Below, piece by piece: positions 14,628 through 40,058 of a DNA stretch of 64,000 bases. How positions within the stretch are numbered: position 1 is the first letter of the stretch; each line of letters opens with the position of its first letter. Below the pieces are notes generated by a model. It had not been told where the DNA came from. It searched no databases and saw nothing but the letters and a program-made list of their open reading frames with translations. The position numbers and the translations under genes are program-made. Location: IMG/VR virus record IMGVR_UViG_3300027898_000007; one strand, 5' to 3'. The stretch is from a virus.

Positions 14628-15179
14628 TTAAAATAATTTTTTAAATCGAGCTATTAATATCAAAATCCCTAATCCAATAATAGCCAATATAATCCATTTT
14701 ATTTCTTTGGCAATATTTACTAAATTTTGCCAAAAATTTGGAACATGATTCACCACTTTAGCAATTTTAACAGAAGTAGTTAAACTGTCACTTTTTATTT
14801 TTTCTTTTTCTTGTAATAATTTAAAAACTCTGATTAATGAATCCTGGGTTACACGTAATTTATGATTTTCTAATGATAAACTTTTAAACTGTTTATTATC
14901 GGTACTTTGATGGTCAATTACTTGCACTTTTTCAACAAAAACCGTGTCTCCATGAACTCGCACTCCGATGCTTTTATCATCATTATAATGAATACCTGAT
15001 CCTTTAATAAGGATTGTATTTTTTACTGGATGAATAAGAGTATCTATATCGTGACGAATAATGGATTCTGATGAAACAAACTTATGAGTACCACAAGCTA
15101 CCATGTCAATTATCCAACAAACTACTACAATGATTAAAATATAAAATCTAATTGATCGAATATTGTTATTTTTTTTCAT
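14628..15179 (-). CDS. Putative unimolecular spanin
   Basis: Basic N-terminus, hydrophobic stretch and lipobox-like MVA-C, then a C-terminal TM helix (WIILAIIGLGILILIA) with basic tail. Confidence 0.55.
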   Translation of the reverse strand: MKKNNNIRSIRFYILIIVVVCWIIDMVACGTHKFVSSESIIRHDIDTLIHPVKNTILIKGSGIHYNDDKSIGVRVHGDTVFVEKVQVIDHQSTDNKQFKSLSLENHKLRVTQDSLIRVFKLLQEKEKIKSDSLTTSVKIAKVVNHVPNFWQNLVNIAKEIKWIILAIIGLGILILIARFKKLF

Positions 15180-15448
15180 GCTTGAGGAGGAGTAGTGGGG
15201 GTTGGGATAACAGATGGATCAACAATTGTTTTATCAATTTTAGCAAACTGAGCTACTACCGCAGCTGTTCCAGCTACAACCGCTAATTTATCTAAAATAT
15301 GACCTGGAATTACCGCGGTTACGCTAGGTTGTTGTTTTACACTTTCAGAAGTAAAACAAATAAGTGCAGCAATCTTTTGTAATTTTTTCCACCACACGGG
15401 TAGTTCGCTTAAAAAACGATCTTTTAATTCTATAAAAAACTTTTTCAT
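15176..15448 (-). CDS. Putative holin
   Basis: 90 aa, two hydrophobic segments, ELPVWWKKLQKIA motif typical of Bacteroidetes phage holin-like proteins; next to spanin candidate. Confidence 0.5.
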   Translation of the reverse strand: MKKFFIELKDRFLSELPVWWKKLQKIAALICFTSESVKQQPSVTAVIPGHILDKLAVVAGTAAVVAQFAKIDKTIVDPSVIPTPTTPPQA

Positions 15449-15449
15449 T

Positions 15450-15824
15450 TTAGTCTTGGATTAATTTTCTTTTTTTGGGTCTTTGTTCTTGATTATACAC
15501 AAGTTTTTGTCTATCTAAACGTTCAATGTTTTTTTTTAAATCGGCTACTTCTTTTCGAGATTCTTGAACCTGGGTAATTAATTCTCTATTTACACTATCT
15601 GTTTTCCGGATATTAACTTCTAAATTAGTCGTTCTAGGTAATACCGTTAACAATTGATCTAATTTGTTATTAAGATTGGCGTATCCAACCCCTAATGCAA
15701 AAATACCCGCTATTATTCCTGCTATGTGATTCCAATTTAATGATGTATCAATGGTTGGGTGATTGTTAGGCGAGTGATTATGTGATTGATTTCCATATAG
15801 TGTTTGTTCGTTATTATCCTCCAT
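15450..15824 (-). CDS. Single-TM coiled-coil protein, possible lysis accessory
   Basis: WNHIAGIIAGIFALGVGY followed by a coiled coil. Confidence 0.4.
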   Translation of the reverse strand: MEDNNEQTLYGNQSHNHSPNNHPTIDTSLNWNHIAGIIAGIFALGVGYANLNNKLDQLLTVLPRTTNLEVNIRKTDSVNRELITQVQESRKEVADLKKNIERLDRQKLVYNQEQRPKKRKLIQD

Positions 15825-16855: not shown

Positions 16856-19800
16856 TTACACGCCAATAGGGCAAGATGTAGTATTTAAAGTAGGAGCTAC
16901 GTAATTAATATCAGTACTCACATTGGGTTTCGTAACTAAAACTCCGTTATTATAAACTAGTCCGGATCCGTTTGTATAATACTGTTGTAATAACGTATAT
17001 CCTAATTTACCATCATTAATAAATGTATTAGGATATTTAATTTCGGTCCAACTCGCACTATCGTAATTAGCTGCGTAAATACCCGAAGCTGCGTTTGAAT
17101 AGGCTACGTCTAAAGGAGCATTTCCAGCCATTCCCGTATTGACAATGGTTCCGTTGTTTAATGACGGATTAATTTGATAAATATTAGATCCTTGACGACT
17201 AGCTATGTAAATAGAAGAAGTTTGAGGTAAATATTCAGCGTTACCTGCTGGAGTAGGTAAACTCAAAGTATTGATGATTGTGTTGTAAGTCGGATTTGCT
17301 GGATTTGTATCAATTACATATACAGATTGTGCGTTTTGAACTGGAACAAACATAGTACGAGTGGCTGGAAAATAAGCAGGTTTTCTTCCAGTATCGCCTG
17401 TTGGTGAAGGTAAAGTAAGGGTGGCAAAAGCGGTTGTGCCTGTGGGAGATACCACATTTACTCTTACTACTCGATTGATTCCTGTGTTACCATCAACAAA
17501 ATATAAATTACCCGTGGTTGTATCTTCAGCTACTGAAGTTGGATATGACCCGGTGGCTCCGTTTGTAAATGAAATCAAACCTGCGGCTGTTCCTGACAAT
17601 GTTAGTTTCTGAGCATAATATTGTGTGGGGCCATAAGGTACAATAAATAAATTTTGATATTGAGAATAGAATAATCCAATCGGAGTATTTGAAGCAATAG
17701 CGGTATTGAGGGCTGTTACTGCATAGGTGGATGGATTTATAGAATATAAACCTTTTTGTTGATCTAATAAATAAATCATCGACCCCACTTGAACTAAACT
17801 TCTAGGTGAAGTAAATCCAGTTATAGTTTGAATAATCGTGTTGTACGTACTTGTGTTAGCGGGATTTACATCTAAAACGGAAACAGTACTGGTTCCACCT
17901 GATGCTGGAGTAGTTGTTGCGCTATTATAATTTGCAAAAAAAGCTCGATTGGTTGTTTGATCAATCACTACGGAATAAGGATAGCTTAATCCTCCTCCGG
18001 ATGCTCCGGAGTTTACAACTTTTTCACAATAGGCTGATCCGGGATTTACTTGCCATCCCGTAGGCCCATAACCTGAGCAAGTACATAATTGCCAATTACC
18101 TGCAAAATCTCTAATGTAAACTTGTTTTGTATTTACTTGCGCCCAATTTCCAGAAGCTGTTTTTATAAAAGAATTACATAAGTCTTCCCAAGTATTACTA
18201 GCGGTTTGAACATACACTTTAGAAATGGGAGTTAAAGCACTAATAGTGTAATAAAATATACCTGATGCTACTGTACCATTACTTACCAATGTGATGTTTC
18301 CAGAAGTAGCTCCTGTTGGAACGGTAGCTATTATTTGAGTAGAATTAATCGTTAAAACAGATGAACAAGCTACTCCGTTTATGTAAACTAAGTTGTTAGT
18401 TAAATTAAAATTAGTTCCGGTAATTGTAAAACTACTTCCTACGATTCCAACTAAAGGGGAAATAGAAGTAACAACTGGAGTTGCTGAAACAGCTGGGTTA
18501 ACTACGACAGTCGTTTGAGCTGCGGCTGTTCCACCATCCGCATCAATTACTGTTATTTGATATACATTAGTTCCTTGGGTTAATCCGGTAACTGAGGTAT
18601 TTTGAGAATTAGGATTAGTAATTGTACCCCCTGCGTTTCCGGATACTTTTGACCAAGTATAACTTGCAATAGTAGAACTACCTCCTGGTGTTCCAGTAGA
18701 GGTTAATGAAACTGTACTTGTGGGTAATTGAATAGTTTGATTACTACCAGCAATGACGCTTGGATTAACAATAACTCCTCCGGCAATAGTAATGGTAGTT
18801 TGACTAAAAGCATAATCTCCATTCCCGTCTATAGCTTCTATTTGAAAAATATAGGTTCCTGATATTAAATTACTTAATGTGGTACTTAATGTATTAGGAG
18901 AATTTATAGTCGCTACACTTGGACCAGAAACTTGAGTCCAAGTGAAAGTGGCGGTTTGACTACTCCCATAAGTAGGTGTTGCAGTAACAGTAGCCGTTGT
19001 TAGACCTGATGATAAATTTTGATTACTTCCCGCGTTAATGCTAATGCCTGATGTTTGATTAGGTATTGCGTTAGTAGCATCTAAATACGTAAACGTTAAA
19101 GTATTAGACCCCGATTGACCATTTATGATAATTCCTACTGTAACAGGTCCTGGACTTAATCCCGATGGAACATTACCTTGAAAATCAATTCCCCCTGATG
19201 TGGTATTTAAAGATGTACTAACTAAAGTAGCTAATACACTTCCGAAATACAATTGAATTTTAGTAATATCGGTTCCAAAATTTTGTCCTCGAATTTGAAA
19301 TTCTTGACCCACTCCACCCAATATAGGGTCAATCGAAGTCATCACTATTTGAGGAGCAGTTACTACAAAAGATACGATATTCGATCCAGTAGAATTACCC
19401 GCTCTAAATACTTGTAAATTATATGTAGCTGGGCTTAAATTAGGTAATATAACAACTAACGTTGTGCCATCTGTACTAACAGAACTTACAGTACAAGCCG
19501 TGGTTCCTAAATTAACCGTATTGTTTGCAGTAGAAGAACTATCGAAATTAGTTCCTGTGATAGTAACGGATGCTCCTCCTCCCGCTGATGTGGGATTTAC
19601 ACCTGAAATAGTGGGAGTTGGTAATGAGCTAAATGAAAACGTTTGACTAGCGTCCGTAGGTGTTCCGGTATTAGCTTGAATGGTTTCAAGAGTATATACT
19701 GTGCCGATTACCGGAGATGTTCCGCCAAAAGAAGCGTAAGCATATGTATCTGAAACTAAGTTTTTATTAACAAATATATTCCCAGTTGATCCTTTTATTT

Positions 19801-19903
19801 GGATACCTCCAAGAGTAGACAATCCCGTACCGTTAATTCCAATTATAGAATTGGCATATAATGGATTCGGTATGGTTAATGATGTGATTACTATTGCGCT
19901 CAT
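16856..19903 (-). CDS. Adhesin-like protein: IPT/TIG domains, two PKD-like domains and a YVTN-type beta-propeller (start revised to ATG 19903)
   Basis: PTISGVNPTSA, MTSIDPILGG, PVVTSISPLVG (IPT); AGSNQ...TWTQVSGP and YTWSKVSG (PKD); VIDTNPANPTYNTII (YVTN-like). ATG overlaps upstream TAA. Confidence 0.7.
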   Translation of the reverse strand: MSAIVITSLTIPNPLYANSIIGINGTGLSTLGGIQIKGSTGNIFVNKNLVSDTYAYASFGGTSPVIGTVYTLETIQANTGTPTDASQTFSFSSLPTPTISGVNPTSAGGGASVTITGTNFDSSSTANNTVNLGTTACTVSSVSTDGTTLVVILPNLSPATYNLQVFRAGNSTGSNIVSFVVTAPQIVMTSIDPILGGVGQEFQIRGQNFGTDITKIQLYFGSVLATLVSTSLNTTSGGIDFQGNVPSGLSPGPVTVGIIINGQSGSNTLTFTYLDATNAIPNQTSGISINAGSNQNLSSGLTTATVTATPTYGSSQTATFTWTQVSGPSVATINSPNTLSTTLSNLISGTYIFQIEAIDGNGDYAFSQTTITIAGGVIVNPSVIAGSNQTIQLPTSTVSLTSTGTPGGSSTIASYTWSKVSGNAGGTITNPNSQNTSVTGLTQGTNVYQITVIDADGGTAAAQTTVVVNPAVSATPVVTSISPLVGIVGSSFTITGTNFNLTNNLVYINGVACSSVLTINSTQIIATVPTGATSGNITLVSNGTVASGIFYYTISALTPISKVYVQTASNTWEDLCNSFIKTASGNWAQVNTKQVYIRDFAGNWQLCTCSGYGPTGWQVNPGSAYCEKVVNSGASGGGLSYPYSVVIDQTTNRAFFANYNSATTTPASGGTSTVSVLDVNPANTSTYNTIIQTITGFTSPRSLVQVGSMIYLLDQQKGLYSINPSTYAVTALNTAIASNTPIGLFYSQYQNLFIVPYGPTQYYAQKLTLSGTAAGLISFTNGATGSYPTSVAEDTTTGNLYFVDGNTGINRVVRVNVVSPTGTTAFATLTLPSPTGDTGRKPAYFPATRTMFVPVQNAQSVYVIDTNPANPTYNTIINTLSLPTPAGNAEYLPQTSSIYIASRQGSNIYQINPSLNNGTIVNTGMAGNAPLDVAYSNAASGIYAANYDSASWTEIKYPNTFINDGKLGYTLLQQYYTNGSGLVYNNGVLVTKPNVSTDINYVAPTLNTTSCPIGV

Positions 19904-21690
19904 TATTGTACGAATATTGGAGTACCAGTTAAAATTAATTTTTGACCTTGAAAACTTTGATAAGGATAACTTGACCAATAGATAAATCCATTATTAGGAA
20001 CATAAGAAGCATCCCAATTCCAAATTTTTGAAAAAGATATTCCCGATGGAATAGTGTAAGTTATTGATCTCCCCACGTTAGTAAATGTAGTATTTTGACT
20101 ATTTTTAAGAGTTTGATTTCCTGCTACCAAACTTTCATCTGCATCCCCTGTACATTTAGCCCAAAGAACGTATCTTGTAACTCCTGTTGTGGAATTGGTG
20201 AATGCTCCGCCATCACAAGTTGATGGTAAGTTTAAAGCCGCTGATTTAGTAGCATCGTAATCATATCCGTAAAATAAATTAGCATGGGTAGTCATAGCTA
20301 CTCCTGATGGTTTTTTCTGAAATTGAGAATAAGATGTGTGATTAGATAAAAAGAAATATTTACCCATTGATCCGTTCGGATCTCCTGGATTATTGGCGTT
20401 ATTAGGTAAAACTACATTGTCTGTTTGTGCGTAATAATAAACCTGTCTAATTCCATTTCGTTGAGCTATTACAGCAATTTTAGTATCATAATTTCGTTCA
20501 ATTTCGTAACTACCAAATGTAGCCCATGTATTGAAAGATGTATATGAAGGTAAGTCTGTTTCCGTACATATAAAGAACTTAGCTGGATATTTAGTTCCAT
20601 CATATCCATATTGAGCTAAATATGCTTTAAATCCATTTAAAGAAGCTAAAAATATATTACAAGCATTATCTGAATTCGCTAATCTATCTGTTCGATTGGT
20701 GGTATTATTATAAGTACTCCAAGAATAACCTGGGTAATTATGAAAATCAATTGCATCAAAATAAGCTCCTCCGAAATTAGGGTATAAGGAAGATTTTGTA
20801 CCTGATCCTTTAGTAGGATCTCCTGTAAAATCAGAACCAGGGTTATCTGTATTAGTTAGTAAAAAATGTAAAAATCCAGGATAACCAATTCCACCCGTAA
20901 GTACAATACAATTTGGATAATAATGATGAGCGACTTCGTATGTTATTCGTAACATACGAATGTAAAAATATGCTGGACAATATAAATTATGCATGTCTTG
21001 AGGAGCAGGTACACCTAATGTATCAATAATACCTGTACCAGAATAATCAAATATATCCGGTTCGTTCCAAACTGAAAAATATCTTACTCCTCCTTTTGGA
21101 GTGGCTTGTTGACCATATGTGAGAACGAAATTTTTAACATATCTAACCATAGGACTAACTGTATCTGGAGAACCATCCGCGTTCCAAATATTACCGTTAT
21201 TGGTTGAATCATAAAGATTTCTAAATACTAAAGAATGATATGGTGAATGAGTATTGCCCGTGGCTACTGGATTATTATAAACTCGTTTATCTAAGTTTCC
21301 ATCTGACACAGTATTCATGAAACAAGCAATATCACTCATTCCTCCTTGATTACCATAAAATAAATAATTAGCTTTATGAATAGCCCAGTTAGGTTGACCA
21401 TTAGGTAAAGAAAATAAATAATATTGATCCTCAAAATCTCCTAATCTTTCTGATTTAGCCCCCAAGTCTCTAGCAATATGGGCTTGAATAGAATCTTGAT
21501 AATTAGGATAAAATAAGCCATGGGCTGTGAAAGCGGGATCTGATCCATCTCCATAAAATTGAGCATTAATACCGTAAGCATAATGTGATGTGGTAGCTGA
21601 AGGAATAAACGTGTTAGCTGTAAACGTAGGAGCTTGACCATTCACGTACAGTGAACAAATCAATAAAATGAACAATACTATTTTTTTCAT
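19903..21690 (-). CDS. Secreted clan GH-A glycoside hydrolase (GH39/GH5-like TIM barrel)
   Basis: Signal peptide MKKIVLFILLICSLYVNG|Q; acid/base motif WNEPD; FDAIDFHNY; nucleophile motif ICTETD. Confidence 0.75.
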   Translation of the reverse strand: MKKIVLFILLICSLYVNGQAPTFTANTFIPSATTSHYAYGINAQFYGDGSDPAFTAHGLFYPNYQDSIQAHIARDLGAKSERLGDFEDQYYLFSLPNGQPNWAIHKANYLFYGNQGGMSDIACFMNTVSDGNLDKRVYNNPVATGNTHSPYHSLVFRNLYDSTNNGNIWNADGSPDTVSPMVRYVKNFVLTYGQQATPKGGVRYFSVWNEPDIFDYSGTGIIDTLGVPAPQDMHNLYCPAYFYIRMLRITYEVAHHYYPNCIVLTGGIGYPGFLHFLLTNTDNPGSDFTGDPTKGSGTKSSLYPNFGGAYFDAIDFHNYPGYSWSTYNNTTNRTDRLANSDNACNIFLASLNGFKAYLAQYGYDGTKYPAKFFICTETDLPSYTSFNTWATFGSYEIERNYDTKIAVIAQRNGIRQVYYYAQTDNVVLPNNANNPGDPNGSMGKYFFLSNHTSYSQFQKKPSGVAMTTHANLFYGYDYDATKSAALNLPSTCDGGAFTNSTTGVTRYVLWAKCTGDADESLVAGNQTLKNSQNTTFTNVGRSITYTIPSGISFSKIWNWDASYVPNNGFIYWSSYPYQSFQGQKLILTGTPIFVQ

Positions 21691-21956
21691 TATTTTTTAT
21701 TCGTTTTAAAAGAATTATATAATTGTATTGTAGTAGCTAAAGCAGCTTCTTTCTGTTTAATGGATCTTTCTAACCCCATGTATATTTCAGGATTTTTATC
21801 TTTTAAGTGTAATTTTTGAAGTTCTTTATAATGAGTAATTAATAATTTTAACTCATGTATATTAGAGGTATCCGATTTAGAAGAACTTATAGTTTGTGCT
21901 GATAATTTAAAAACACAAACCACGAGTAACAATAAGAAACTAAATGTTTTTTTCAT
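21690..21956 (-). CDS. Small secreted protein
   Basis: Signal peptide MKKTFSFLLLLVVCVFKLSA|Q followed by a short helical body. Confidence 0.6.
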   Translation of the reverse strand: MKKTFSFLLLLVVCVFKLSAQTISSSKSDTSNIHELKLLITHYKELQKLHLKDKNPEIYMGLERSIKQKEAALATTIQLYNSFKTNKK

Positions 21957-22646: not shown

Positions 22647-23147
22647 TTATTTAGCCATAAGTACTCGTATGTTTTTAATTTCATCTAAAGTCAATACATC
22701 TTTGAAATATAATTCCGATAACTCTTTATATCGCCTATTTACCAATCCGTCAAGTATTTTACCGTTAGCTTCATCCCATTTCATCCAATTGTGAATAATG
22801 TGATCGTGATCGTTTGGATTTAGGTTAATGGTTTTTAAAACGCTTGATGTAGCAAAGCCATGCATACCTATATTATAATTTAAACAAATAACTGCGTCAT
22901 ATTGATTCTGAGTAAGTACTGACGTAATTAATTTGTTAACTGAAATTTCTCTTTTTTGAACATCTAATAAAAGATATTTTAAAGCTTGATCTTTAGTAAT
23001 TGTTTGATTTTGTGTTACAAAACGTCCATCCGGATAAATAATAGTTCCGTATCCAATGGTCCAAACACCTTTAGAATCACGATAACTTTTTTCCTCAAAT
23101 GTTTCCCATTCTCCTAATTTACTCAGCCCGTTTTGTGAAAATTTCAT
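22647..23147 (-). CDS. Endolysin, GH24 phage lysozyme
   Basis: E-x8-D-x5-T triad (ETFEEKSYRDSKGVWTIGYG), LTQNQYDA, YNIG, GLVNRR. Confidence 0.9.
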   Translation of the reverse strand: MKFSQNGLSKLGEWETFEEKSYRDSKGVWTIGYGTIIYPDGRFVTQNQTITKDQALKYLLLDVQKREISVNKLITSVLTQNQYDAVICLNYNIGMHGFATSSVLKTINLNPNDHDHIIHNWMKWDEANGKILDGLVNRRYKELSELYFKDVLTLDEIKNIRVLMAK

Positions 23148-23638: not shown

Positions 23639-26600
23639 TTAGAAACTAGATAATATATACCATACTGTATTTGTTGGATCCCAAACAATACATAACCTGG
23701 ATCCTCCTGATGACAAAGTATTCAATACCGTAGTTGATCCGGATTGCCCGGTAAAATATTGTTCTATTGATCCAGATGCTGGAGTTAATGTGATCGTTCC
23801 TGTATTTGTCGTAGCCGTTCCTCTGTGAATGTATATTCGTTGAGGATAACTAGGAGTTGTTAAATTGATAGTGATAGCGGTTGACCCATTATTACAAATG
23901 ATCACTTCGTCTGACGTGGATGTGGTATAGTTAGACGTTCCTGTAAACGTCATGTTCATACCTTGACCTTTGGTGATAACTGATCCGTTAAACGTTCCTG
24001 TTTGATATACCATTTGACCAGTACCTAAAGTAGCGGCTGTGGTAGAACCTACTTTAGAAAGTACAATAGCATTAATAGGCATTGTAGCATTACCTAACGT
24101 ACTACCTCCATTAATCCAAATAATACCTGTTCCGTCTGGACTTATATTATTAAAATATAAAACCTGGGAAGTGTTGTTATAATACGTTACGTTTTGATCA
24201 TTATTTAATCCATTTACGGAAAAAGCAACTACTGTGTTTGTACCTTGTTTATATACAGAAGAACTAAATATTTCAAGATTGTATGTACCTGTGGTATCTA
24301 ATCCTGAAAATTGTAATAAAGCCCCTGTTTTAGTTTTAACATATGCCCCTGCGGCTACGTATGATTCAAAACCTGAATTCATAACCGTTGCGGGAATAAT
24401 AGAATTTCCCCAGGTAGTTGTGTTTAATGTGTTATAAGCTGATAATGAACCTGAAAAAGATGTCCAGTTTGCCGTAGCTACTGTACTTATTGTAACTCCG
24501 TTACTTAATGCTTTTGTTACAACTCCTGTACTCGGATTACCCGAAACATCTTGCCATCCAGCAATACTTTGAGCATTAGCGTTAAAATTTATATTCTGAG
24601 TCCAGGCTGTTTGATTACCTATGTTCTGTAATGGTTCTAAATAATATAGTGTGCCATCATAAGTAATTCTAAATAAATCAGTAGCGTTAGAACTAAGGGT
24701 GGGAGGTACAGAACCTACGAATGCATAATTAGCCCAAGTTATTACATAAGTTCCTAAATTTGTTAGTCGTAAATATCGAACTTGACCCGGTTCCATACCC
24801 ACCGGATATCCTATAGTTACGTTAGATGATACTTTGTATGTAAGTTGAGAAGTTGATGTAAAATTAGGATTGATGGTTGAACTAAACGGATATTCTGTAA
24901 GAACTGGTTTTAAATCATCTACTTTACTACTAGCGTTATTAAATAAATGATTTGATATGTATAAGTTACCTGTTAATATTCTCGAACCTGATGATTGAAA
25001 ACCAAATGTTTGAAAAGCCGTTATCATGGTTTGAGCCATCAAAATATGACCTTCTAAGCTAGGGTGAATATTATTACCATTAGACGAATATGCTACGTTA
25101 AATGTTCCTGTACCCGGCATAGCAAGTGGAGTCCATAAATCAATTACATACCCATCATTAGCATATGTATTAATTAATGTGTTATACGATATAATAACCG
25201 CGTTATATGTTAAATCGGGTATGATAGTAGTTAAAATTGGAATGATATTATTATTCAAACAATAACTAATAAATTGTTTTAAATAGTTGGTGAAGTTAGT
25301 TAATCCTTGAGCTGAGTCATTTTTACCCATACTCATAATAGCATAAGTGGGTTTTAAAACACCCATTTGAGTAGTATAATTTGTAATATCTGATATACTA
25401 CCACCAGATTGAGCTAATTGAACGTATCGTTTACCTAAGTTAAATGAGTTAGCCGCTATACGACCATACGCGTTATTAGGATCAGCTGCTGTAGGTACAT
25501 CTAATGTGGTATTAGCAATGGTACAATTATACCCCTGGGTTATACTGTCCCCAATATGAACAATATATGGGTTCAATTGAGTATTGACCATATAGACAAT
25601 ATTTTGATACAAATACGACCCCCCTACCGTACAAATACCTACCCATGTGGGATATGATCCTCCAAAAGAATAAGCCGTTGTAGATAATGCTTGGACGTAT
25701 TTAATGGATGCTGTTCCTGGAGTAGTTGTATTTGTTACAGTAAACGAATATGTAGCGTTATCTCGAACCACACTTAAATTTAAAACATCCCCCGCATTAA
25801 TTGTCAAGGCGTTCACAGAAGTAGCTACTACGTGAGCTGAAGCTACAATAGTCAAAATACCCGTAGAGGTATTAACAACGAATTCTCCGTAAGCCGTTGT
25901 ATTTCCGTAAAATATAGCGGCTCCGCTTCCAACAGTATTTACTTTAACCGTGGATGTTATTTGACATTCTGCGAAATATAAATTCTGAGCGTAATAATAC
26001 ACGTCCGTATATCCATTACTTGACCCGGTAGAAGAAATTCCAGAAGCCGCTGTGTAAGTATACGTTGTTCCACTTGGTGCGTATGTAGTGTAAGAAGTGT
26101 AAGATGTGGTTCCAGAATTCGTATTAAAGTATGAACTTTGATAAATACCAATAGCTCCCGTACCGTTAAAAGGAGTATATCCTAAAGCCGTAATAATATC
26201 CGAAGAACCTACACCAAAACTAGATACTACTCGTCCGTATCCATCAACTGCAAATTTAGAAAAACTAGTTCCGGTAGCGGCTTGAGTGATCGGTTTTAAA
26301 GTAGTTGTTATATTAGTAGTTCCCGAACCCGTTATATCTCCTGTAAGAGTAATGTTTTGATTTCCTGTTAAATATGTACCGTTTAACAATGGAGTTAAAT
26401 CTGAAGTAGTTACGGCTGTATTATTAATAACACGTCCTTTTGTATCTAAGCCAAGTTTAACAAAAGATGTTCCGGAAGATCCTTGGGTAATAGTCGCTAA
26501 TGTTAAAGTGGGAGTTAAAGAAGTAGTTCCTGATGATGATCCGGTAACATCTCCTGTACCTACTGGAGCAAAAGATATAGATTGATTAGCCGTTAAATAA

Positions 26601-28228
26601 GACACATTAGATCCTGCCGTCACCAATCCTTTAGCGTTAACCGTAACATTATTCCAAGTACCAACATTAGCATTTACCACAGGTAATGTTAATGCAATGC
26701 TCGTTGTTCCTGATCCGGAAATATCTCCACTAATGGTAATGCTTTGGTTAGCTGTTAAATAAGATGTATTAGATGCTGCTGTTACCAAGCCTTTAGCGTT
26801 TACGGTGACTGTATTAAAAGTACCTACGTTAGAATTGACAGTAGCTAGTGTTAAATTAGGACTCAATGTCGTAGTCCCACTAGCCGTTCCTGTTAAATCT
26901 CCACTTACTGTAAAAGTTATAGATTGATTACCAGTAAGATAAGAAACGTTAGAAGCTGATGTAACTAATCCTTTTGCATTTACGGTTACGTTGTTCCAAG
27001 TACCCACATTACTATTAACACTAGCTAATGTTAAAGATAACGTAGTAGTTCCTGATCCAGAAGCATCACCTGAAATAGTAATATTTTGATTACTTGTTAA
27101 ATAACTTCCTATTGGTTGGTAAGTAGTACTTGCGGTAGCTGTGGTTAAATACGGGCTTAAAGCACTAGAAGTAATATAATTATTAGGGTTAGTAGAGTTA
27201 TAAGGAACAAACCCTAAAGCACCTGTTACAGCTGTTGAAGTAACAGAAGTTAAATAGTTAGGTAATGTAACATTAACCCATTTAGTGCCGTTATATTGTA
27301 AATATTGAGAACTGGTTAATCCAGATAAACTAACATCGGTAAGAGCAGATAATGTAGTTGATCCTCCACCACCTCCTCCAGAAGCAGCCGCTACGTTGAC
27401 CCATTTGCTTCCATTATATTGCAAAATTTGACCACTTGATAATCCTGTTAATTGAACATCCGTGTGATTAGCAAAAGTGACTGATGTTAAATATGTATTG
27501 GTATTAAACGATCCGTCCTGCATTAAAAACGTGTTTGGACTTCCTCCAGGAACAATAAATTTAGGAGCGGTAATACCGTTTGTAAAAACTGGATTTCCTA
27601 AATAATCAATAGCTAAATAAGTAGTTCCTTTGATTCCTGAAAATCCTTTTGTTCCACCAATTCCTAAAATATATCGATTATTTGTATCTATTCCTTGAGT
27701 CCAAATAGATTGACCTACTCTAGTGAATGCTAAATAATTGTAATTATTGCCGTCTGTAGGATTGATTACGGATAATGTACCGTATGGATCATGAGCTGAT
27801 GAATTTCCCGCTATCGATAATCCTTGAAATAAATACTGAGACGTACCGTTAATAGGGCCACCCATGGTTAACGATCCTCCGATTACTCCGTTTCCGTCAA
27901 TATTAAAATTAGCTCCTGATTGAACTAAAGTACCGTTTAAAATAGCACTTCCTGAACTGATGGTTCCTGATGAAAAATTAATATGACTCAAAGGACTTCC
28001 CCATCCACCATTAATAAAATTATAAATGTTCCCCGTGGAATAATCTACATACCATTTATAAATATCCGTATCTAAAGCGGTTAATGTGGGATTAGCGGTA
28101 GGCACTCCCGTTCCCCAAAAAGTAGCATTTCCTAATACGGCAACTAAATTTTGCCATAAATTATATACGTCTACTTTTGAATAAACTGAATATTTAGGTA
28201 CACATGCTTGATAGGGATTTTGCGCCAT
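23639..28228 (-). CDS. Tail fibre/spike (1529 aa) with stalk repeats and an SGNH/GDSL esterase domain
   Basis: S/T/G-rich; SGNH blocks HIGDSITQG, QSGG, MGKND, NIHPS; LQYNGxKWVNV repeats. Confidence 0.8.
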   Translation of the reverse strand: MAQNPYQACVPKYSVYSKVDVYNLWQNLVAVLGNATFWGTGVPTANPTLTALDTDIYKWYVDYSTGNIYNFINGGWGSPLSHINFSSGTISSGSAILNGTLVQSGANFNIDGNGVIGGSLTMGGPINGTSQYLFQGLSIAGNSSAHDPYGTLSVINPTDGNNYNYLAFTRVGQSIWTQGIDTNNRYILGIGGTKGFSGIKGTTYLAIDYLGNPVFTNGITAPKFIVPGGSPNTFLMQDGSFNTNTYLTSVTFANHTDVQLTGLSSGQILQYNGSKWVNVAAASGGGGGGSTTLSALTDVSLSGLTSSQYLQYNGTKWVNVTLPNYLTSVTSTAVTGALGFVPYNSTNPNNYITSSALSPYLTTATASTTYQPIGSYLTSNQNITISGDASGSGTTTLSLTLASVNSNVGTWNNVTVNAKGLVTSASNVSYLTGNQSITFTVSGDLTGTASGTTTLSPNLTLATVNSNVGTFNTVTVNAKGLVTAASNTSYLTANQSITISGDISGSGTTSIALTLPVVNANVGTWNNVTVNAKGLVTAGSNVSYLTANQSISFAPVGTGDVTGSSSGTTSLTPTLTLATITQGSSGTSFVKLGLDTKGRVINNTAVTTSDLTPLLNGTYLTGNQNITLTGDITGSGTTNITTTLKPITQAATGTSFSKFAVDGYGRVVSSFGVGSSDIITALGYTPFNGTGAIGIYQSSYFNTNSGTTSYTSYTTYAPSGTTYTYTAASGISSTGSSNGYTDVYYYAQNLYFAECQITSTVKVNTVGSGAAIFYGNTTAYGEFVVNTSTGILTIVASAHVVATSVNALTINAGDVLNLSVVRDNATYSFTVTNTTTPGTASIKYVQALSTTAYSFGGSYPTWVGICTVGGSYLYQNIVYMVNTQLNPYIVHIGDSITQGYNCTIANTTLDVPTAADPNNAYGRIAANSFNLGKRYVQLAQSGGSISDITNYTTQMGVLKPTYAIMSMGKNDSAQGLTNFTNYLKQFISYCLNNNIIPILTTIIPDLTYNAVIISYNTLINTYANDGYVIDLWTPLAMPGTGTFNVAYSSNGNNIHPSLEGHILMAQTMITAFQTFGFQSSGSRILTGNLYISNHLFNNASSKVDDLKPVLTEYPFSSTINPNFTSTSQLTYKVSSNVTIGYPVGMEPGQVRYLRLTNLGTYVITWANYAFVGSVPPTLSSNATDLFRITYDGTLYYLEPLQNIGNQTAWTQNINFNANAQSIAGWQDVSGNPSTGVVTKALSNGVTISTVATANWTSFSGSLSAYNTLNTTTWGNSIIPATVMNSGFESYVAAGAYVKTKTGALLQFSGLDTTGTYNLEIFSSSVYKQGTNTVVAFSVNGLNNDQNVTYYNNTSQVLYFNNISPDGTGIIWINGGSTLGNATMPINAIVLSKVGSTTAATLGTGQMVYQTGTFNGSVITKGQGMNMTFTGTSNYTTSTSDEVIICNNGSTAITINLTTPSYPQRIYIHRGTATTNTGTITLTPASGSIEQYFTGQSGSTTVLNTLSSGGSRLCIVWDPTNTVWYILSSF
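26195..27103 (-). repeat. Five ~55-65 aa tail-fibre repeats
   Basis: YLTxNQxITxxGDxxGSGTT...LTL...VTVNAKGLVT, three close copies and two diverged copies. Confidence 0.8.
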
Positions 28229-36983: not shown

Positions 36984-39900
36984 TTAAATAAACAATTTTT
37001 TTTTAAAAAAGTTATCTACTAAAGCTTCTTTTTGTGCTTCGTGAACAACCACACGATGCATATCGGTAGCCATTAACAGAGCTAAGAAAAAAGCAATAAC
37101 CCGGTCAGTATTGACTTCTCCATCATACGCTATCAATTCTTCCACTAGCGGTATGGATGGAATATTAGTAAGCTGAAGAACGCCAGGGGATAATTCCGTT
37201 TTTAACCAATCGCGCGTCATGATTTCTAATTGCCCTTTAATTTGAGTACTCATATGAATACCATATTTACGATCTACTTTTGAATTAGGGCTGAGAGATT
37301 TGATAATCTGGGGTTGGGGATACAATAAATATAAAGAATTTTTATTTTCCAAATACATTTTTAATCCCGGTTTTTCATTTTCAAATAAAATACGACCGTT
37401 GTAAAATAAAGCCAATTTTCGAGCATTTTCTAAAAAATCTTTTTCTAATTCGGGTCTCCCGGTGTATTCCGCTACCACACAATTACTGGTTTTATCAGCT
37501 GAAATAAATCGTTTATACACAATCATAGACCCTACGGAATTAGATGTACTAGCCTGATCCATGGCATACGGGTCAAGTCCGATAGTATATAATCCAAATG
37601 GAGGATTGGGTATAGGTTGTTCCCATATAGTCACACATCCTTCTTTTTCGTCTTTTTCATAAATTGGAAATTTTAAAGCTCGATTAGACGGTAAAGGATA
37701 TGGTTCGAACTTAACTTCACCATTAGGTAATTGAATTAGTTTACCCTCGACTCCTAACAATTTATCGTCTCGTATGCTTTTTAAATTCGCCAGATGTTCT
37801 TTTAATTCCACTACTGGAAATACGTTTCCTGTGATGGTTAAGAAAGCTTCAGATGGTTTTAACGGTCGATTTTGTAATTCCGAATAAAGAGGTTCCCGGT
37901 TTTTACCTTCGGCTAATTTTTCTCTTTCTTTCATGAGATAATTTAAAGCCGCTACTTCATCGGTAATGCCTTCTTCATTTTTAAAGGCATTTAGTCCCAA
38001 GGTAGCTGGAATAAAATATCCTATTTTACCTCGATTTTCATATTTATCGTCAAAAGCAATACAGTTAAATGCTTCGGGAGAATAAAATATTTTTTGAGCA
38101 GCTTCCGTAGCCCCAGTAGCCATGGCTCCTCCGGTTCCAGTATAATGCAATGTTCCAAATTGTTCGGATCCATTGGCTACCGCTTCTCGCAATTGACCAT
38201 GGACTTCTAGTAAGTTATAACAAAAACCTACCTCATCGATGACGGCATACGAAGGACGAGATCCATTTGCCGCTAAAGGGTTAGCTTGAAAAGATCGATG
38301 GAGAATGGATGACCCCGATCCTTTTTTTACCCAGTTATTACCTTGTTTGTAATCATACAAAGCTTTGATGGCTTTTCCGGAATCCCAAGATCCAAAATAT
38401 AATTTTTTAAAAGGAGATGGGTATTCTCGACCATTGAAGGTAATTTCACCTTTTAAATTATCCAAGCCTAACTGCATTTTTTGCAATAAAGCACTAGAAT
38501 ATTTTGTATCGATGGCAGATATTAACGTTTCAGATTTAGTTCTTTGGTCTGGATCATATTCGGTTTGACCATCAAAAAGAAAATTATAATCTCCTCCTCC
38601 TGCGGCTCGGAAAGAATTATGAGTAACAATATAATCTCCAGCTACAAATAATTTATCTTCATTATCCACTTCAATACAAACTGACGGTTTTATACTAGTA
38701 GGTGTAATATTAGCAATACCTGTTTTACTAATTTTACACGTTTTATAAAAACATTCGTTTTTCCAATATCGTTGTTTTCTTTTTAATTTAAAAATTGGAA
38801 TTTTAGGTTTTAATCCAAATCTATAAACTAATTTATAACCTTTTACCTGTTTTGTGTATACTTTACATCCAATACCTAATGAGTTTACTAGATTATAAAA
38901 ATCTTTAGCTAATTGAGGAATAGTAGTTGTAAACTCAACTTGAGTTAAACCGGAATATCCGTCGGAATCCATCAAACCTTTTAACAATTCCATACGTTGC
39001 TCAATAGAACCGTATAAATAATCATATGGGATATGTTTGTTTTTTATTAAATTTAATTTTTTTAATTTGTTTTTTAAAACATTAAATTGACTATTTTTAG
39101 GAGCATTGATGTTGTAAGTTGGACAATTTTTTGACCCGTTTTGATTTAACGTAATATGTAAATTTTCTTTATCGGCAATTGTATAAACATATTCTATAAT
39201 TTCAGGATCCGTGGTTGTAATTCCTGTATTATGAGCATTGCCGTCACCCAACCACAATCCTAAGTAATAGGGTTCTAATTCTTGTTTTTTTTCCTCATAT
39301 TGAATTGGTTCACAATACTTAACGAAATATTTAGGATCACGTTTACCGTGGGGTCTTAAATACCCTAAATAATTATTTTTTATGTCGTCAATGGATCTAG
39401 TAACTGTTTTTTGACTAGTTGTTCTTAATGTCCATAAATGACCTCCTCCGCATTCTATTGATCTACCGTCTGAAAAAGATACTTGATATTGTAATTGATC
39501 CTTGTAATTAACTTTGTTCAATACTCGTGTGAGTTTACCATCAGCCCCGTAAATATAATCTCCCGGATTAATGTCTTTTATTTTAACAGGCCCTTCTTTT
39601 TTGTAAACTAACGTATTTTCTTCTAAATCTTTGCCATTTCCCCTCGAACCTATTTCTATCATATTCATAGCCCCATGATGGTATAAAGGACGACCTAATT
39701 GATGGGGAAAATTACTACCATTTTGCAAATAATCCATCAATTTATCTTGGGGAATTTCGGGTCCATTTTCAAAACCACTAAATCCTCTAGCTACTAAAAA
39801 CATATATCCCCAAATCCATTCGAGATCTCGGAGATGAGGGGATGCAATAATTTTTTGTTTGGAATTTTTACTTTTATTTAATTCGATTTGAAAATAATTG

Positions 39901-40058
39901 GTGTAAAAATATAATACACCGGGCATAAATTTATTTCCAACCCACATCCCCTCAATACATCGTCTTTTCTCCGTTCTCCAAAACTCAATATATTCCCTGG
40001 TGAGGGGATTAAGTGTTGGAATTTTGGTTAAAAAGGACTGGTTAGAAATAAATGTCAT
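36984..40058 (-). CDS. terL: Terminase large subunit containing an intein
   Basis: Walker A GSRGNGK|S split by intein; Walker B AVIDEVG; coupling motif GTGG; nuclease GLDPY and DRVIA. Confidence 0.92.
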   Translation of the reverse strand: MTFISNQSFLTKIPTLNPLTREYIEFWRTEKRRCIEGMWVGNKFMPGVLYFYTNYFQIELNKSKNSKQKIIASPHLRDLEWIWGYMFLVARGFSGFENGPEIPQDKLMDYLQNGSNFPHQLGRPLYHHGAMNMIEIGSRGNGKDLEENTLVYKKEGPVKIKDINPGDYIYGADGKLTRVLNKVNYKDQLQYQVSFSDGRSIECGGGHLWTLRTTSQKTVTRSIDDIKNNYLGYLRPHGKRDPKYFVKYCEPIQYEEKKQELEPYYLGLWLGDGNAHNTGITTTDPEIIEYVYTIADKENLHITLNQNGSKNCPTYNINAPKNSQFNVLKNKLKKLNLIKNKHIPYDYLYGSIEQRMELLKGLMDSDGYSGLTQVEFTTTIPQLAKDFYNLVNSLGIGCKVYTKQVKGYKLVYRFGLKPKIPIFKLKRKQRYWKNECFYKTCKISKTGIANITPTSIKPSVCIEVDNEDKLFVAGDYIVTHNSFRAAGGGDYNFLFDGQTEYDPDQRTKSETLISAIDTKYSSALLQKMQLGLDNLKGEITFNGREYPSPFKKLYFGSWDSGKAIKALYDYKQGNNWVKKGSGSSILHRSFQANPLAANGSRPSYAVIDEVGFCYNLLEVHGQLREAVANGSEQFGTLHYTGTGGAMATGATEAAQKIFYSPEAFNCIAFDDKYENRGKIGYFIPATLGLNAFKNEEGITDEVAALNYLMKEREKLAEGKNREPLYSELQNRPLKPSEAFLTITGNVFPVVELKEHLANLKSIRDDKLLGVEGKLIQLPNGEVKFEPYPLPSNRALKFPIYEKDEKEGCVTIWEQPIPNPPFGLYTIGLDPYAMDQASTSNSVGSMIVYKRFISADKTSNCVVAEYTGRPELEKDFLENARKLALFYNGRILFENEKPGLKMYLENKNSLYLLYPQPQIIKSLSPNSKVDRKYGIHMSTQIKGQLEIMTRDWLKTELSPGVLQLTNIPSIPLVEELIAYDGEVNTDRVIAFFLALLMATDMHRVVVHEAQKEALVDNFFKKKLFI
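38616..39629 (-). mobile_element. Class 3 intein (338 aa) with LAGLIDADG homing endonuclease
   Basis: Starts DLEENTLV after GK, ends VTHN before Ser; CGGGHLW (block B), LGLWLGDG and LKGLMDSDG (LAGLIDADG), VCIEV (block F). Confidence 0.9.

Follow-up and report, generated by a model that had tools for sequence, protein, structure and literature searches.

Results

The DNA analysed here (the window) is a viral stretch of 64,000 nucleotides (IMG/VR record IMGVR_UViG_3300027898_000007), whose minus strand carries three consecutive genes that, judging from the sequence comparisons given below, most likely form a horizontally mobile phage accessory cassette. These genes encode a small, apparently exported protein of 88 aa (21690-21956; an open reading frame (ORF) call with a signal-like N-terminus), a predicted GH39-like glycanase of clan GH-A with 595 aa (19903-21690; assigned from fold, motifs and homology) and an IPT/PKD/propeller protein of 1015 aa (16856-19903; recognised by Pfam and fold), all three lying inside a long late block on the same strand. 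A first-pass annotation, made from the sequence alone, had described the first two genes as TAATG-coupled to each other and the enzyme gene as coupled to the IPT/PKD/propeller gene. Indeed, both junctions (88-aa/595-aa and 595-aa/IPT-PKD) consist of a TAATG with a 1-nt overlap, and the IPT/PKD gene starts with the ATG at 19903, not with the upstream TTG.

The 595-aa protein gave no match in Pfam (E <= 0.1), PHROG or NCBIfam and no phmmer match to PDB chains; in particular, the Pfam model of GH39 (PF01229) did not match it. Its AlphaFold2 model (pLDDT 81, pTM 0.86) displays a (beta/alpha)8 barrel (~residues 30-470), beginning ~12 residues past the predicted cleavage site, and a beta-sandwich (~470-595). 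The best structural match was BcGH39 (5jvk; VIA-align Z 26.5, root-mean-square deviation 3.1, 364 residues), together with PslG (Z 24, 376-378 residues aligned; Foldseek E 2e-16), and the next ones were GH30, GH79 and GH5 structures at Z ~20-21, all top PDB matches being GH-A barrels with Z values of 19-26. The alignments to 5jvk and PslG cover model residues 34-595, thus including both the barrel and the C-terminal beta-sandwich of GH39, and the sequence profile of the enzyme family reaches 5jvk through the WNEP stretch and the C-terminal domain (CTD) only. Alignment and model place the predicted catalytic residues in two motifs that had been reported as intact: WNEPD (residues 208-212; 21055-21069, minus strand), whose E210, where beta-4 ends, is the predicted acid/base, and ICTETD (residues 374-379; 20554-20571, minus strand), with E377 as predicted nucleophile at the end of beta-7. 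N209, E210, T376 and E377 are invariant in a family alignment of 30 sequences (A1), N209-E210 come after the model strand 202-207, T376-E377 lie within the strand 372-378, and WNEPD aligns with the WNEPN of 5jvk. The enzyme is therefore GH39-like by its modelled fold and belongs to clan GH-A, but it is not a sequence member of GH39; the best explanation is a retaining GH39-like endo- or exo-glycanase using these two predicted catalytic glutamates. Note that clan GH-A folds are also present in other phage proteins.

The lack of a fibre or trimerisation stalk, pointed out in the first-pass annotation, is borne out by the model, which contains no virion-attachment module, trimerising stalk or beta-helix (a leader, then barrel and sandwich from ~residue 30), and no PHROG tail family was matched. 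According to homology searches, the enzyme family comprises 69 clusters at 90% identity and ~390 representatives at 50% identity, with named records mainly from Bacteroidota (Saprospiraceae, Chitinophagaceae, Cytophagales and Sphingobacteriales) and a few from Myxococcota. Most of the cellular relatives are cargo of type IX secretion: many members carry a type IX secretion system (T9SS) sorting domain or CBM6/35, PA14, malectin, PKD or SH3 modules, and in many of them the enzyme is the N-terminal domain of a 1,400-2,900-aa protein. A tblastn search with the enzyme against 50,697 phage records found no match, and the IMG/VR search returned two loci only.

Both upstream cassette proteins start with MKK and a hydrophobic core of 13-16 residues, ending in VNG↓Q and LSA↓Q as had been noticed. 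The predicted signal peptide covers residues 1-20 of the 88-aa protein (21897-21956), with Gln at +1 (21894-21896), and residues 1-18 of the enzyme (21637-21690), with Gln19 at +1. When 77 non-overlapping window ORFs were scanned for n/h/c-regions with a crude heuristic, five had a signal-like N-terminus, and these two proteins alone had a small-x-small site followed by Gln. By the same heuristic, both display a positive n-region, an h-region, small residues at -3/-1 and Gln at +1, as in the Bacteroidetes Q-rule, by which signal peptidase I substrates expose Gln (PMC5837995, PMC10653852). The leader of the enzyme is in register, column by column, with the leaders of homologues bearing a Por_Secre_tail domain, and it is followed by the conserved mature start Q-x-P-x-[FY]-T-A-[ND]; since these cellular homologues carry T9SS domains, they must be exported by Sec. 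Across the family, a hydrophobic N-terminus occurs in 189 of 214 proteins and a small-residue-Gln site in 162 of these 189, against a background of 24% in random 22-residue windows, which fits the published Q-rule. All five phage-type copies have Gln19 without exception, although their leader sequences differ. The T9SS sorting domain (PF18962 / TIGR04183), which both Pfam and NCBIfam recognise in the homologue P0014, was not matched in the window enzyme by either, and in the family alignment this enzyme stops at the sandwich domain whereas the cellular proteins run on into a linker and CTD. With no sorting domain and no lipobox, the enzyme should remain periplasmic until lysis.

Genes for a small signal-peptide protein, the enzyme and a TIG/PKD protein follow one another in this order in three further phage contigs or contig pairs, namely L001 (75/557/959 aa), L003 (97/563/677 aa) and L060/L061 (79/558/936 aa), so that the linkage among these genes, on which the first-pass annotation made its reading depend, is conserved in relatives. 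Beyond the cassette, these contigs have no further detectable protein in common with the window. L001 and L003, mutually distant relatives with Terminase_3-type packaging genes, carry the cassette between replication genes (helicase/primase, resolvase, single-stranded DNA-binding protein) and terS/TerL, with no lysis gene among the flanking genes scanned; in L060, it comes after an LPD38 protein. The lysis/tail region, proposed initially as the setting of the module, is therefore not conserved, and a linkage to the lysis module as a general feature is ruled out by the L001 and L003 arrangement. The exported glycosidase itself fared better, given its fold, its motifs and a genuine-looking Sec/signal peptidase I signal aligned with those of T9SS cargo homologues.

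The four cassette enzymes form one clade (SH-aLRT 99), all of them having an insertion behind the TDNP motif, and their nearest cellular relatives are P0078 (signal-GH-PKD-CTD) and P0095 (without CTD). A fifth phage, G001/L009, is a temperate Bacteroidota phage (41 kb, with integrase, RecT, terminase and portal genes), and its enzyme, which has a leader with Gln and no CTD, falls in a different branch of the tree, thus pointing to a capture independent of the cassette clade. In this phage, three consecutive proteins have a signal peptide followed by Gln (L009 2450-6197, plus strand, IMG/VR UViG 3300037419_002305): a fibre-like 453-aa protein with glycine linkers, a 235-aa protein with a weak likeness to the C-terminal domain of the L001 and L003 partners (E 2e-4 and 0.14, respectively) and the enzyme, with a holin-like gene 0.9 kb and a GH108 endolysin gene 2.7 kb downstream.

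The 1015-aa partner contains three TIG and two PKD matches (Pfam), a fourth IPT-like unit and, by fold, a C-terminal 7-bladed beta-propeller of the YncE/YVTN type (residues ~640-960), in agreement with its first description. The IPT/PKD proteins have no leader in any cassette. The first 500 aa of the window protein are ~33% identical to the L001, L003 and L060 partners, but the C-terminal tips differ. Exchangeable tips are typical of receptor-binding proteins. The propeller tip of the window is 43% identical to the last 390 residues of a 1697-aa protein from another crAss-like contig (L066 10001-15992, plus strand), whose gene precedes those of a crAss_MUZ_C protein and of a giant LPD38 protein, and we take this similarity as evidence of tip exchange among crAss-like tail proteins. 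In addition, a cellular 1840-aa protein (L015 476-5998, plus strand) fuses a GH39-like domain with PKD arrays that have 36-40% identity with the phage partners, a Rosetta-stone-type fusion that supports a functional link between the enzyme and the IPT/PKD gene. An enzyme-IPT/PKD fusion made by -1 frameshifting was considered and rejected: each of the three cassettes checked does have the partner in the -1 frame, but no slippery heptamer is present, and the L003 partner frame stays open over only 4 codons upstream.

The mature part of the 88-aa protein (68 aa) is Lys-rich with a net charge of +5, and no homologue besides itself was found among 5.8 billion clusters. Its positional analogues in L001, L003 and L060 likewise have a signal peptide, Gln at +1 and a basic mature part (+7 to +12). 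Altogether, the four small proteins have mature parts of 57-78 residues with net charges of +5 to +12 and no detectable mutual sequence similarity beyond the leader; their composition suggests a helical mature part.

The window belongs to a crAss-like phage (Crassvirales), with Pfam matches to Crass_capsid (E 5e-147), tail Ring 1, 2 and 3/4 and the crAss_MUZ muzzle. Its major capsid protein is at most 50% identical to that of any phage record or known crAss-like phage, and the stretch is present in freshwater metagenomes of at least three studies, two of which may be where this DNA came from. Upstream of the cassette lie a 1529-aa fibre with a GDSL esterase, a Phage_lysozyme endolysin and a 221-aa fibre-like ORF; downstream of the enzyme, the IPT/PKD gene is followed by two small ORFs and three small membrane proteins. 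The block had been placed between endolysin and holin/spanin genes, and the endolysin is clear (22647-23147, minus strand; T4-type lysozyme family, PF00959 E 7e-34, phrog_7 E 1e-36), a neighbour outside the cassette that has no signal or signal-anchor-release segment, as the hydropathy scan found no hydrophobic segment. The holin/spanin label is less secure, since the three small genes (183, 90 and 124 aa; 14628-15824, minus strand), a candidate spanin/holin set outside the cassette, had no family match in Pfam and PHROG scans and are labelled from membrane segments predicted by hydropathy alone. The 183-aa protein (14628-15179, minus strand), also without family match, combines a lipoprotein-like N-terminus (…MVAC↓G) with a C-terminal membrane segment, which is the architecture of a unimolecular spanin. 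In the 1529-aa fibre (23639-28228, minus strand), residues 889-1066 form a GDSL/SGNH esterase domain (PF13472 E 1e-11). The virion thus probably bears a carbohydrate de-acylating enzyme already, to which the exported glycanase would add another, separate enzyme active on the envelope. Elsewhere in the window, a 1024-aa ORF (36984-40058, minus strand) has LAGLIDADG_3 and Hom_end matches at residues 343-412, which fits an intein in a large gene of the packaging/portal region.

The neighbourhoods of the cellular family members were also surveyed. Among 122 neighbours at 38 cellular loci, GT2 occurred three times and no SusC/D was found among the 25 commonest families listed, while seven single loci were mixed (three uninformative, two with a fucosidase nearby, one after ABC sugar permeases and one Wzy/GT2/Wzc-like). 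A polysaccharide utilisation or exopolysaccharide (EPS) locus as the context of the cellular family was consequently rejected, no association being dominant. At one locus (L063 105-8503), the CTD-less P0095 converges on a Wzy_C / GT2 / GT2 / OEP-like / Wzz-AAA_31 locus, and P0095 is the only cellular relative that abuts such a polysaccharide biosynthesis locus; the window gene does not lie within one but in a phage cassette.

Discussion

Our results suggest that the cassette delivers a soluble periplasmic glycanase that is freed at lysis. The enzyme would derive from enzymes of Bacteroidota for which export by Sec precedes secretion through the type IX system, and the phage copies would have kept the Sec/signal peptidase I leader and Gln at +1 and lost the T9SS sorting domain. 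Made late and coupled to structural genes, it would cross the inner membrane, be cleaved and probably pyroglutamylated, and accumulate as a soluble periplasmic protein able to cut a polysaccharide of the host envelope or one of the surface that is still being made, much as periplasmic PslG does with Psl. When the cell lyses, the enzyme would be freed with the progeny and could remove the same glycan from cell debris and from cells nearby. Pyroglutamate capping, which is reported to stabilise extracytoplasmic proteins (PMC10653852), would suit an enzyme needing to survive outside the cell. The small basic protein would act as a co-exported helper, and the IPT/PKD protein, made in the cytoplasm with an exchangeable tip, would probably recognise the same surface structure. 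We infer the enzyme activity and the benefit to the phage from the features of the genes described above. That the enzyme is exported and not part of the virion seems to us quite probable, and the whole chain of events, taken together, stands at about an even chance.

The leader is kept through 35-54% divergence and two independent captures, which argues for selection on export. In Bacillus phages, GH32 levanases lack the signal peptide that is present in their cellular relatives (PMC4595243), and by contrast with these leaderless enzymes the retention of the leader in the phage GH39-like enzymes looks selected. More generally, tailspikes, free depolymerases and GH32 levanases resemble the window enzyme as phage enzymes that cut host-associated polysaccharide, with free soluble forms known, but they fold in the cytoplasm. 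A precedent for a periplasmic role is PslG of Pseudomonas aeruginosa (4zn2, 5bx9, 9g17), which shares with the window enzyme a two-domain GH39 architecture, an extracytoplasmic location and two catalytic Glu. Overexpression of PslG on its own makes it relocate to the periplasm and reduces the output of Psl (PMC6813494), its soluble periplasmic form degrading the nascent exopolysaccharide (PMC6813494). However, the two proteins are 10-15% identical, and PslG has its gene within the psl biosynthesis locus and is for the most part retained at the inner membrane, whereas the window enzyme has a short leader of the cleavable type and is part of a cassette carried by phages. BcGH39 (BACCELL_00856 of Bacteroides cellulosilyticus WH2, 5jvk) likewise has the WNEP motif and the C-terminal sandwich, and it shares a T9SS domain with the cellular members of the enzyme family; in contrast, it is cellular and 16% identical to the window enzyme, and the Pfam GH39 model misses the phage protein.

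Several observations weigh against our interpretation. Export and cleavage of the enzyme are themselves predictions from its sequence. The IPT/PKD partner has no signal peptide and cannot meet the enzyme before lysis, which leaves the logic of the cassette unexplained, and the fibre-like 453-aa protein of the temperate phage, with its signal peptide and Gln, indicates that phage leaders may not always mean absence from the virion. Transcription evidence consists of three exact-match contigs, 151-229 nt long, which come from a single metatranscriptome library of fresh water (19053-19281, 20688-20838 and 21101-21251, in the IPT/PKD and enzyme genes) and for which DNA carry-over is possible, thus giving a weak hint. 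Moreover, the cellular homologues are mostly stand-alone genes without a consistent neighbourhood and give no substrate clue; the P0095 branch may act on the cell's own polymer, for which the L063 locus is the sole hint and an isolated case.

A more daring variant keeps the exported enzyme and makes the three genes a mobile 'bind and destroy' pair, divided over two compartments, in which a cytoplasmic adhesin with exchangeable tips is combined with a Sec-exported enzyme and basic helper that strip the same glycan from within the intact cell. We regard this variant as tentative and rather unlikely; if true, phages would have an analogue of the way in which haemagglutinin and neuraminidase divide their labour, and one that can pass from one phage lineage to another, unrelated one.

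An enzyme borne by the virion has to be considered next. Phage polysaccharide-cutting enzymes are usually viewed as virion parts acting from outside, and the glycanase could sit in the tail, perhaps docked on the IPT/PKD protein, with an N-terminus that is unused for export or serves the extracytoplasmic maturation of host-recognition proteins. The position of the window enzyme among tail genes and its coupling to a fibre-like protein are consistent with this, as are the propeller tip, which the partner shares with a putative large tail protein from a different crAss-like contig, and the signal peptide with Gln of the G001 fibre-like protein. However, an enzyme whose barrel starts so soon after the cleavage site has neither an N-terminal adaptor nor a trimer stalk, and the window's own fibres (the 1529-aa and IPT/PKD proteins) have no leader. 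In addition, the L001 and L003 cassettes have replication genes on one side and packaging genes on the other and are thus placed away from tail genes, and a specific docking interface is unlikely to be kept by a cassette moving between unrelated virions. We thus consider a place in the virion improbable.

Equally improbable, in our view, is an auxiliary metabolic gene, i.e., an extra polysaccharide degrader that feeds the infected cell or serves as a public good without any role at the host surface. The CBM6/CBM35, PA14, malectin and T9SS domains of the cellular relatives are typical of secreted glycan degraders, a fucosidase lies near two homologues and ABC sugar permeases precede another. 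Virus-encoded glycoside hydrolases have also been reported from soils (PMC6786970), and the authors of the Cryophage study suggested 'additional enzymatic capabilities' (PMC7468147). Such a role fits poorly with the missing sorting domain, which puts an external substrate out of reach until the cell is dead, with the position of the gene in a late, structural operon, and with the fact that the enzyme always travels with an adhesin-like IPT/PKD protein and not with transport or catabolic genes.

The enzyme and the cationic small protein could also be lysis accessories that weaken a glycan layer linked to the outer membrane, the small protein then resembling a membrane-disrupting peptide. The window cassette does lie between the endolysin and membrane-protein genes, the G001 enzyme is upstream of holin-like and endolysin genes, and the four small proteins are all strongly basic. 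This explanation appears quite unlikely, as no lysis gene accompanies the L001 and L003 cassettes in the scanned flanks, a candidate spanin is already present in the window and, to our knowledge, no clan GH-A enzyme cuts peptidoglycan. Finally, superinfection exclusion alone, in which the enzyme, acting in the periplasm, would cut back the glycan that serves as receptor on the infected cell and so block later phages, follows the same localisation logic as our preferred explanation and was proposed for phage T9SS cargo by the Cryophage authors (PMC7468147), but it is very unlikely here because apparently late expression, coupled to structural genes, and a window without lysogeny genes leave little time for exclusion to pay, G001 being the sole temperate case.

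With respect to known systems, the first-pass annotation went too far in calling the module undescribed, since a secreted phage GH39 (PMC7468147) and Q-rule phage proteins (PMC10367356) had already been published. Cryophage, a 76-kb Bacteroidetes phage, encodes an endoglucanase, a GH39 and a PA14 protein as T9SS cargo (Bellas et al. 2020, PMC7468147). Like the window, it is a Bacteroidota phage with a GH39-type enzyme that uses host export, its genes are flexible and exchangeable, and it has a variable GDSL-esterase fibre domain comparable to that of the 1529-aa protein (PMC7468147). As described, however, the Cryophage proteins carry a T9SS type A sorting domain, which should take them to the cell surface, whereas the window enzyme has a Sec leader only and should get no further than the periplasm, and the three-gene cassette is not described there. 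In Porphyromonas gingivalis prophages, five signal peptidase I substrates predicted to expose Gln were taken as an adaptation to host secretion (PMC10367356); these proteins have no assigned function, whereas the window offers an identifiable glycanase, an apparently virulent crAss-like phage and a conserved cassette. New here are thus the Sec-only (periplasmic) version, the three-gene cassette across unrelated phages including one that is crAss-like, the second independent capture and the unnamed enzyme family.

Altogether, this GH39-like family of ~390 clusters is a candidate new CAZy family, and the cassette offers a concrete case on which to test the Q-rule for proteins of viruses. If our preferred explanation is true, i.e., a Sec-exported periplasmic glycanase freed at lysis, crAss-like and other Bacteroidota phages would remodel the envelope from within before lysis and then release a stabilised free enzyme, which is relevant to the ways in which abundant phages of Bacteroidota deal with capsules and EPS.

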